Of a stretch of 64,000 nucleotides of DNA, positions 22,801 to 25,800 are shown piece by piece. This DNA comes from Euglena gracilis (taxonomy: Eukaryota). Location: assembly GCA_039621445.1 (NCBI GenBank), contig CP154954.1:24688954-24752953 (forward strand). The letters run 5' to 3'. How positions within the stretch are numbered: the first letter of the stretch is position 1; every line of letters begins with the position of its first letter. The notes beneath the pieces are model-generated. The model worked only from the letters and a program-made list of their open reading frames with translations, ran no database searches and had not been told where the DNA came from. The translations under genes were made by a program, and so were the position numbers.

Positions 22801-25800
22801 ATCCGGCGCTGTTCCGGGGCCCCGCGGGGCCGAAACGGGGGGAACGGGGGACGCGGGGGATGCTACACGGACCCCCCCCTGGAGACTTTACTCTAAAGTC
22901 TTGCTAAAGTCTTGCTGCCATATATAACTATAATATATGTTATATACTAATAGACGTGTATATGTGCATATATATATATATATATATCTGTATGTATAAT
23001 AGATATAATTATAATATACAAAATAAACGAAACCGCTGAATTCTCCGTCACCGTGGAGCCAGCCCTCAAGAGGTGCCCAACGCTGGCGCCTCCGGCTTCG
23101 AGGGGGCCCCGGGGTCGATCCATGAGCCGCCGGAGCTGGACCTCGACGCGGACCTGGAGAAGGAGCTGTCCCTGGAGCCGGAGGTGGTGGAGGAGGTGCC
23201 CCACGTGTTCCGGATCGTCCTGACGGGAGGGCCCTGTGGGGGTGTGCCGTCCTTCCGGAAATTCCTGCTCTTGCGGTGGACCATGCTCAATGATGATTTC
23301 GACTCCCCCTTTGGCGCTCTTCTTCCGTTGGGTTGTATAATAACGTTCTGTGTTCTTTGTCATCCCCATCCCAGGCCTGAAACCCCATATGGGTGGTGGG
23401 TGGGGGCCCCCCCCACCAGGACGGATTTGAGGTGGGAGTTTTTTAAATTTTCTCTTCGGCTCCAAAGGAATTTCCGCTTGTGCGGTGCTGTGGTGGGGGT
23501 GGGGTTCGGCCCCCAGACCTTCCCGTGCAACCCCGCGCCGCCTCTTCGGTGCAGCACGGAGTCTGCCGCCACCCCCATCAGTCTGGAGCCACCCCCCACC
23601 CATGACGTCCCTCCCCGCCTGCCGGTTTCCCTCGCAGGTAAGACGACTGCGCTCTCCACCATCGCGGACTACCTCCGGTCCCTGGGCACCCAGGTCCGTG
23701 TGCTCCCCAGCCCTGTGCCGCGCCTGCCAGCAGGCGGTGCGTGGTTGGCCCCGCCCTTGCAGCATTATCCGCTGGGGACGGCACCGTCTCTGCAACACGG
23801 CTGATGGCGCAGCACGTGCTGTGCAGCTTTTCGTTCGGCGGTAGAGCATAGGATGGCCCCCAAAGTGCGATGGGAATCGGGCAATTTCACGGGAACTGCA
23901 AGAAACCAGCAAGAAAACAGTGGCCCGGCTATCCACCCAGGCCACAAATTTTCCCCCTGAGACCCCCCCCGCAGCATTTGCATACGTTCCGAAAGTCAGC
24001 CTTTCGTCCTTCGGCCCCCGCCCCCCACAGGTGTTCATGGTGCCGGAGAACGCCACCATCTTCGCCAACGGCGGGGCGGGCTTCCCGGTGCACTCCTCCA
24101 AGGCGCAGCAGATGTGCTGGGAGCAGGGCCATGCAGGAATCCCCACAACCTTATGGGGGGGGGGCGACCCCCCACCCCCATCCTGGTGGTCGGGGGGGGG
24201 GATCCCGACAACAGGGGGGGGGGAAAGCGTTTCGCATGCGCATGCGCAGCGCATCAAATTTTCCAAAAATGCGCATTCTTGCCATTTTTTCGCATTTTTT
24301 CGTTTTTTTCAGCGCATTTTTTTGCTTTTTGACACATTTTTTCGTGATTTTCTAAAATTTTCGCATTTTTTGACCATTTTTGCAATTTTTTGCAAAAATT
24401 TGAAATTTTCGACTTTTTTTGAAACTTAAATTTTCCTCATTATTCTACATAATTTCTTCAAAATTGGTGCCATTTTTGCATGTTTTGGGGTAATTTTTGC
24501 ATTTTCGTGATTTTTGAGCATTTTTTCTCGGATTTTGCACATTTTTGCGCATTTTTTCAAAAATGCGCATTTTTTTGCGCATTTTTGCGCATTTTTGCGC
24601 ATTTTTTCCGAGGCCGGGCGAGCGCATTTCCTCCCCCCCCCCCTGCCGACAACCCCTCCCCGCCAGGCTTTCCCGGTGCAGCCCTGGCCGGGAGAGCTCC
24701 CGCATCATGTGCCAGATGAAGATGGAGGGCCAGCGGCCCTTGGCGCACCGGTCGGGACGCTATTGTTTGAAAAGAATGGAAGTGTTTTTTCTGCCGCTGC
24801 GGCCCATCCCCCTTGGCACTCTTGGCATTTGTGAGACGCCGCCAAAATCGGTATCGGCATCGACCTATCCAAAGTTTCGGTATTTCGGCATCGACCTCGC
24901 CAAAATTTTGATGTCGACCTCTGCTACCCTTCACATTCCCCGAAAAGAGGTGCCTCATCATCGTCGCCATTACTGAGTCGGGATTTGAATTATTTTTTGA
25001 TGTTTCCCAAGGCAGTAACGTGCCTTGGGGCCTTTGTTTTGCACAGGAGGATGGCAGGAGGTCGATGGCCCCGCTTCCCGTCTCGTTTCTGAGATGGATG
25101 CAGCCATGCCCCGACGTACCCGGCTCGGCCTCCTCCACCTGAGATTGCCATCCTGGAGGCATCAACAGAGTCCAAATTGCATTATTTCCCTGGAACAGCA
25201 GACAGTTGCCCACATGTTGGAAACGTGCTGGTTTTTGGAAGGCTCGGAAGTGGCAGGGAGACAACAAGAAGGCCAGCCAGATGCGTTGTGCAAGAACATT
25301 CGAGGGCAAGTCTTAACCCAACCCCGGGGGGGAGGCAGGAGAGTGGGCAACGCACCGCTGCGGGGGACTGCTTCATCCAGATCGCGAAGTCGAGCGGCAA
25401 GCCCACCGTGGTGCTGTGCGACCGCGGGACGATGGACGCCGCAGCCTACATGGACTCGCAGGTCTGACCCCACCCCACCCCTGAAGAGTGCTGGCTGGGG
25501 CTCAAATGATCCGTCAAATGAAGCCCGATGTGTAGAGACCAGGTCAAGCGCATTGGCTGGAAATTTCGAGTTTGCTGAAAAAGGCTCCAGGCTAACTCCC
25601 ATCCCCTGGGTTGGGGTCCCAATGCTGGGAGCAGACCAGCGCTCGCACCCAACATAGGAAACATGGAGGTGGAGATGTGAAAGCAAAAAGAGCAAGACAT
25701 TTTTTAATTTTGAAGTTCCATACAAAACGTTGCATACAAAATTGATCAGGAAAAAAAATTGGTTGGGCAAAAATCATCCATCGCCCAATTTTTTCACCGA

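Follow-up and report, generated by a model that had tools for sequence, protein, structure and literature searches.

The nonconventional introns of euglenids are removed according to a code, 5'-N3CDG-/-CH'GN5-6|R, that was set by knock-ins in Euglena gracilis; the donor spacer must keep its length of 3 nucleotides (nt), and the acceptor spacer measures 5 nt, although 6 nt are tolerated (Nomura et al., 2025, PMC12501133). In a review of these introns, +4 to +6 is given as the position of CAG and -8 to -6 as that of CTG, and inverted ends are described together with junction repeats that are "TSD-like", that is, like a target-site duplication (PMC11282704). An insertion resembling a MITE, or miniature inverted-repeat transposable element, was proposed as their source in 2013, and the proposers noted that no transposable element had then been identified in euglenids (PMC3935182). 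The MITE-origin idea has been repeated since (PMC4770533, PMC11282704, PMC12501133, PMC12621601), and in the 2025 discussions the origin is still called unclear and a MITE source "suggested" or "plausible" (PMC12501133, PMC12621601). Here we describe an intron at 24121-24691 of a 64,000-nt stretch of E. gracilis DNA (assembly GCA_039621445.1, contig CP154954.1, forward-strand positions 24,688,954 to 24,752,953; hereafter, the window). It interrupts a gene for a P-loop NTPase with an AAA_28 domain (PF13521), and it was probably made by the insertion of a small transposon.

With the euglenid nonconventional introns (Milanowski et al., 2014, 2016; PMC12501133), the focal intron shares non-GT-AG ends, CAG at +4 to +6, CTG at -8 to -6, spacers of 3 and 5 nt, a downstream exon that begins with a purine, a junction that can slide along a repeat, and coexistence with GT-AG introns in one gene. 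There is no essential difference from them; the focal intron additionally retains a near-intact, in-register 8-nt flanking repeat and contains a nested repeat element. In gapC of E. agilis, direct repeats of eight nucleotides have been described at a nonconventional intron that is strain-specific and was gained recently (PMC4770533). This intron 4 of strain ACOI 323 is recent, since it is absent in other strains, and its authors proposed double-strand-break repair, whereas the repeat register of the focal intron matches that of free-standing mobile elements. Transposon-derived introns (introners, and MITE-derived non-canonical introns, of Fritillaria, Amoebophrya, Polarella and Micromonas) follow the same course, in that a DNA-transposon insertion with inverted ends and a target duplication leaves the RNA and the exon is restored. 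There the spliceosome, sometimes modified, removes the element using signals from the element or from the duplication (PMC11282704); in Euglena, unlike the introners, the cut sites are measured 3 and 5 nt from the terminal helix. The kind of intron is already known, and the focal intron is a new, unusually clear example of it; its novelty is modest. In the literature searched, with supplements and subscription papers outside the search, we found neither named euglenid MITE families with target duplications nor a statement that the 3- and 5-nt splice distances sum to the duplication length.

The exons of P0002, a transcript-derived E. gracilis protein (eukprot EG_transcript_6081), are 100% identical to the window by tblastn and spliced alignment, and the window is therefore E. 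gracilis nuclear DNA. One Ser/Thr difference between P0002 and the window lies near the C terminus. The host gene has at least 18 exons, and 17 introns were mapped, seven GT-AG and ten non-GT-AG. A 50-residue in-frame query across the upstream exon led to four proteins among 13 candidates, all four with PF13521. Pfam searches of the raw open reading frames (ORFs) around the focal intron gave no family; the gene was recognised only via transcript-derived proteins. The AAA_28 domain occupies residues 125-308 of P0002 (Pfam, E 2.6e-26), and the focal junction falls inside it, between W183 and E184. C182, W183, E184 and S185 are invariant in all four euglenid proteins. The gene and the parts of the focal intron are as follows.

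19852-33874 (3' end approximate), forward strand: host gene, AAA_28 (PF13521) P-loop NTPase, from tblastn, spliced alignment of P0002 and Pfam
24031-24120, forward strand: upstream exon (exon 7), 30 codons, with its end anywhere within 24118-24123, from spliced alignment and the RNA joint
24116-24123, forward strand: left copy of the 8-nt TSD-like repeat, GCTGGGAG, by direct reading; the N3 rule makes it exonic over its first 5 nt and intronic over its last 3
24121-24691, forward strand: nonconventional intron, 571 nt, in the placement N3-CAG...CTG-N5|R, one of six equivalent placements (starts 24119 to 24124)
24124-24686, forward strand: whole inserted body, 563 nt, made up of an outer shell, a nested element and one copy of the nested element's 7-nt repeat
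24124-24135, forward strand: left inverted end, CAGGGC (24124-24129), a 2-nt bulge (CA) and TGCA (24132-24135)
24677-24686, forward strand: right inverted end, TGCA (24677-24680) and GCCCTG (24681-24686)
24687-24694, forward strand: right copy of the 8-nt repeat, GCCGGGAG, first 5 nt intronic and last 3 exonic
24692-24727, forward strand: downstream exon, 12 codons, with the purine G24692 as its first base, as the splicing code demands

Excision of 24121-24691 joins ...CAG CAG ATG TGC TGG to GAG AGC TCC..., and P0002 reads ...QQMCW|ESSRIM..., exactly the product of this removal. Joints were mapped over 23060-28450 in raw RNA reads (runs X21 and X24), RNA-type contigs (X15) and DNA contigs (X1). 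A joint 24118->24690, which skips 571 nt and places the exon ends at 24118-24123 and 24690-24695, was present in 13 reads of X21 with 13 different starts and in one X15 contig of 1921 nt that also spans neighbouring exons. Five nucleotides fit on either side of the joint (GGGAG), and because of this repeat the junction is ambiguous at the nucleotide level. The joint was found in no read of X24 and in no contig of X1; that is, no DNA contig was without the intron. In X21, the bin of the exon had an RNA depth of approximately 8 and the first bin of the intron one of 0.13. These data indicate that 24121-24691 is a real, efficiently removed intron in a conserved NTPase domain. The 17-residue reading that the original prediction, made from the DNA letters, gave for removal of this segment agrees with both P0002 and the RNA joint, and use of a different junction by cDNA is excluded for run X21 and the X15 contig.

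The focal intron fits the published code at every element, with N3 = GAG, CAG at 24124-24126, CTG at 24684-24686, N5 = GCCGG (24687-24691) and G24692 thereafter. A start at 24121 leaves exactly 3 nt before CAG, and this placement lies inside the range compatible with the mRNA. The two copies of the 8-nt repeat are identical at 7/8 positions, in register, and the sole mismatch (T24118 versus C24689) is intronic under all six mRNA-compatible placements of the junction. Direct reading bore out the coordinates and letters of the earlier claim that near-identical repeats flank CAGGGC...GCCCTG, and its further claim that the single mismatch is intronic is true for every one of the six junction positions. 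By our own arithmetic, with equal base use, the chance of a match of at least 7/8 in one fixed register is 25/65536. Because 3+5 = 8, the RNA loses, along with the element, one copy of the 8-nt repeat and no more. The outer inverted end is perfect over 6 nt and matches at 10 of 12 positions counting the bulge; by direct reading, the intron ends could pair as 6 base pairs, a 2-nt bulge and 4 base pairs.

Seven of the ten non-GT-AG introns of the host gene fit the code, and besides the focal intron, introns 8 and 10 are confirmed by reads. Across these seven introns, the in-register flanks match at 42/59 positions compared with 19-26/59 in seven shifted registers, and a cross-intron flank control gave 2.86/8 matches on average. 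Intron 1 (19924-20004, 81 nt) has CAGGGC...GCCCTG ends, an N6 spacer and a 9-nt flanking repeat at 8/9, which becomes an exact 8-nt CCCCCGGC if one T is dropped from the intronic copy; this is the same 8-mer as the duplication at a MITE starting at 13145 (below). Intron 17 (33170-33802), which is nonconventional, has perfect 8-nt inverted ends and 6/8 flank identity, and it holds two more CAG...CTG elements, at 33373-33496 with an exact 8-nt duplication and at 33572-33718 with 7/8.

Free-standing elements with the same terminal motif occur elsewhere in the window. Pairs of CAG and CTG were collected if 40-3000 nt separated them and six or more of their end bases were perfectly complementary (1168 pairs in the window). 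Eleven of the 1168 have 8-nt flanks that match at 7/8 or better, and six shifted-register controls gave 0, 0, 1, 0, 0 and 0. When the ends were 8 nt or longer, the flanking repeats that were exact had a length of 7 nt (three cases) or 8 nt (four cases) and no other, and for each length tested, 5 to 11 nt, all six shifted registers gave 0. The four elements with exact 8-nt duplications are listed below.

3578-3868, forward strand: 291-nt MITE, exact 8-nt duplication CTCCCAAG
13145-13548, forward strand: 404-nt MITE, 17-nt inverted ends, exact 8-nt duplication CCCCCGGC
30269-30558, forward strand: 290-nt MITE inside intron 14, exact 8-nt duplication AGGGGGGT, same family as 3578-3868
33373-33496, forward strand: 124-nt MITE inside intron 17, 18-nt inverted ends, exact 8-nt duplication CCCGTGCC

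The elements at 3578-3868 and 30269-30558 form one family, with 81% column identity; CAG and CTG are the precise limits of their homology, and the exact 8-nt duplication of one differs from that of the other. Two of the four elements sit inside other introns of the host gene. The flanking repeat of the focal intron has the same register as those of the mobile CAG...CTG elements of the window. Further CAG...CTG elements with 7/8 flanking repeats were seen at 41800-42304, 38741-39273 and 43782-44524, with inverted ends of 16, 7 and 7 nt, respectively.

The original prediction regarded the whole intron as a MITE. Its reading of a transposon footprint is supported, but the 563 nt proved to be two elements rather than one, a 434-nt element nested in a 122-nt shell. 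The parts of this composite, and the relatives of the nested element in the window, are these.

24124-24211 plus 24653-24686, forward strand: outer shell, 122 nt, left after in-silico removal of the nested element and one copy of its repeat
24205-24211, forward strand: left repeat of the nested element, CCGACAA, exact 7 nt, becoming 8 nt if C24212 is counted as flank
24212-24645, forward strand: nested MITE, 434 nt, with 12-nt perfect inverted ends (24212-24223 and 24634-24645)
24646-24652, forward strand: right repeat of the nested element, CCGACAA, an exact 7-nt match to the left copy
35605-36061, forward strand: second copy of the nested family, exact 7-nt repeat CAGAAAT (35598-35604 and 36062-36068)
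63206-63651, forward strand: third element with the same poly-G/poly-C inverted ends, exact 7-nt repeat ATAAGTG, interior weakly similar

The ends of the nested element read CAG+G9...C9+CTG, and its interior is T-rich with a periodicity of approximately 10 nt. In a BLAST search of the intron against the window, the interior matched 35605-36059 at 89.5% identity over 458 nt (E 1.6e-170), and the match stops inside the intron. The family that includes the nested element is mobile, and its duplications are 7 nt long; an 8-nt count, with the first C taken as flank, fits only two of the three copies. Summed DNA word depth in X1 over 24140-24679 was 2.5x10^5 to 1.4x10^6, compared with 18.5-351 in eight neighbouring bins. 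The nested element thus lies approximately 10^4-fold above its flanks, a figure that is not a copy number, and the depth shows that the family is very abundant. The present copy is slightly off the family majority, because most DNA contigs carry another letter at 24429, 24463, 24487 and 24632.

A 66-nt core of the shell aligns to the MITE at 33373-33496 with a score of 68, compared with a mean of 17.8 in 200 shuffles (standard deviation 3.2, maximum 30). The alignment crosses the nested insertion point uninterrupted, which makes 33373-33496 a related empty site with regard to the nested element; no empty site of the nested element itself was among the joints listed for the DNA contigs. Shell and nested element are short and non-coding, and the ORFs that overlap the region have no Pfam family. 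Only the outer shell created the intron, and the nested element is younger. An 8-nt target duplication and short inverted ends are features of the hAT superfamily. Compared with hAT MITEs, the duplication is 8 nt at the outer shell and at the four free-standing elements and 7 nt at the three elements of nested type.

The best-supported explanation is that insertion of a small transposon made the focal intron, and we hold this to be probable. A non-autonomous DNA transposon with CAGGG... ends would have inserted into the coding exon of the AAA_28 NTPase, between the Trp and Glu codons, and would have duplicated the 8-nt target GCTGGGAG. Nonconventional splicing would then recognise the CAG/CTG terminal helix, with one cut 3 nt upstream of CAG and the other, before a purine, 5 nt downstream of CTG; that cutting is measured from the helix is taken from the literature (PMC12501133). 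With 3+5 equal to the 8-nt duplication, the RNA would lose the element and one duplication copy. The insertion would behave as an intron, since the frame would be restored without a scar. Later, T may have changed to C at 24689, in the intronic half of the right copy, and the high-copy MITE (24212-24645) may have entered the intron and left the outer ends unaffected. We infer that the outer shell arrived by transposition; the RNA junction, its agreement with the splicing code, the nesting of one element in the other and the mobility of related elements are observed.

Several points weigh against this explanation. The perfect inverted end is only 6 nt, the shell termini of approximately 30 nt have no second copy in the window, and no second full-length shell was found there. 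No transposase domain was found in 10 long ORFs of the window, which also bears on the comparison with hAT MITEs. The CAG/CTG ends are no independent evidence for a transposon, because splicing needs them and selection could maintain their pairing. The CAGGGC/GCCCTG helix is absent from predicted minimum-energy folds, whether of the whole intron, its two ends or the shell without the nested element; local hairpins and the exon flanks pair instead, and we weigh these predictions neither way. Where flanks are G+C-rich, matches by chance cannot be neglected, and two of 42 cross-intron flank pairs reach at least 7/8, because some flanks are C-rich. Exact 7-nt direct repeats also flank the GT-AG introns 11 and 14, and direct repeats flank 84.4% of all E. 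agilis introns (PMC12501133). A repeat at the junction is therefore not diagnostic by itself. Duplication length is non-uniform, as the nested family duplicates 7 nt, not 8. Lastly, there is an unexplained direct match of 14 of 15 nt, with one gap, between 24079-24092 in exon 7 and 24666-24680 at the intron's 3' end; its score was reached by 8 of 500 shuffled exons, and 12 other exons of the host gene scored lower.

The repeats at the GT-AG introns are at 26901-26907 and 27219-27225 (intron 11, 7 nt), 29594-29600 and 30738-30744 (intron 14, 7 nt), and 25457-25461 and 26520-26524 (intron 9, 5 nt). They are longer than the splice consensus alone explains, and conventional introns of the host gene may carry insertion footprints too. 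A metagenome scan for euglenid genomic relatives of the host gene gave 593 pattern matches, none of which was confirmed.

Of the competing explanations, gain of the intron without a transposase, for example by repair of a staggered double-strand break with fill-in, survives best, and we consider it unlikely. The inverted ends would then exist for splicing. Milanowski et al. (2016, PMC4770533) interpreted the 8-nt repeats at the recently gained gapC intron in this way, and the presence of direct repeats at GT-AG introns of this gene and at most E. agilis introns of both classes is consistent with it, as are the 6-nt perfect inverted end and the lack of a full-length second shell copy in the window. 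However, the same terminal motif and 8-nt register are found at multi-copy non-coding elements, each with a different exact duplication, which is a signature of transposition, and it is with one such element (33373-33496) that the outer shell has its 66-nt core in common.

A very unlikely alternative is RNA-mediated, in which an excised circular nonconventional intron of another gene was reverse-spliced or reverse-transcribed into the mRNA or the gene and brought its own 3+5 spacers with it. Full-length circular release of nonconventional introns has been reported (PMC11282704), and the intron body does contain repeat-family sequence. The spacers GAG and GCCGG, however, match the local exon flanks at 7/8, as predicted by target duplication and not by donor spacers, and no circular joint of the focal intron (24691->24121) was among the joints listed, from libraries that were not enriched for circles.

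Even less probable is a local duplication linking exon 7 and the focal intron, which would account for the match at 14/15 with one gap between 24079-24092 and 24666-24680, at a score that 8/500 shuffles reach (p ~0.016, uncorrected). The matched blocks are spaced by 23 nt in the exon and by 6 nt in the intron, with no similarity between the spacings, and part of the intronic block (CCAGGCTTTC...) recurs at 33572-33718 and in the loose end of an X15 contig, which points to a repeat-family origin.

An ordinary spliceosomal intron has next to no chance of being correct and is already refuted for the runs examined: in-frame pairs do exist, contrary to the original prediction that there was no in-frame GT-AG alternative (GT at 24114 with AG at 24666, 24681 or 24696, and several GC..AG pairs, such as GC at 24123 with AG at 24696), but none yields QQMCWESSRIM, none corresponds to a joint among those listed, the only listed joint across the intron (24118->24690) has GG..CC ends, and none of the six placements allowed by the mRNA has GT/GC-AG ends.

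Other observations concern the host gene and its surroundings. Between the exon that ends at 27351 and the one starting at 28880, the mRNA has nine nucleotides for V-F-G, supported by 17 X21 reads, 3 X24 reads and 1 X15 contig. These nucleotides were looked for between the two exons and elsewhere in the window and were not found; they could be an oddly split micro-exon, an allele difference or an assembly problem beside a (TGTA)84 array. Exonic differences between RNA and the window include C>T at 24057 (9/16 X21 reads), C>T at 25440 (18/25) and C>G at 26796 (13/29). The variants at 25440 and 26796 are probably alleles or strain differences, not editing, because they recur in X1 DNA and X15 contigs. 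Long microsatellites lie within introns of the gene at 20197-20536, 22271-22377, 28543-28877 and 32391-32843, namely (GTAT)n, (AG)53, (TGTA)84 and a (GT)n array of approximately 450 nt. In the intron after the exon ending at 27351, very high summed X1 DNA word depth at 27380-27739 (approximately 4x10^3) and 28100-28450 (approximately 10^5) indicates other repeat families. Outside the gene, an inverted-repeat listing showed short telomere-like CTAACCC / GGTTAGGG repeats in inverted orientation at approximately 897-1085. An ORF at 44394-45338 on the reverse strand has a weak Maf-like N-terminal match (24.6 bits against a cut-off of 27) and is probably an exon of a neighbouring gene; protein searches with it gave low-complexity matches or a presumably unrelated 205-amino-acid Maf protein, and no Euglena transcript.

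The focal locus gives concrete support to the published MITE-origin idea. Together with its 64-kb surroundings, it supplies multi-copy CAG...CTG elements with exact 7-8-nt target duplications; it supplies an expressed intron whose flanks retain a duplication in the same register; and it supplies an arithmetic link, 3+5 = 8, between the experimental splice distances and the duplication length. These three pieces together make the published hypothesis testable genome-wide on the existing E. gracilis and E. agilis assemblies. We tentatively propose, as a possibility somewhat short of an even chance, that the 3-nt and 5-nt cut distances are fitted to the 8 nt duplicated by CAG...CTG MITEs of a group that is still active and that the focal intron, in which the 8-nt repeat is decaying and a young MITE is nested, is a case of ongoing intron birth. 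A bolder and speculative corollary is a shared history of the excision machinery and the enzymes of the elements, by descent of the former from the latter or by co-evolution. If the proposal is true, any new exonic insertion before a purine would leave the RNA without a scar and would be an intron from its first generation, and most nonconventional introns, a class that accounts for 72% of E. agilis introns, would be the fossils of such MITE families.

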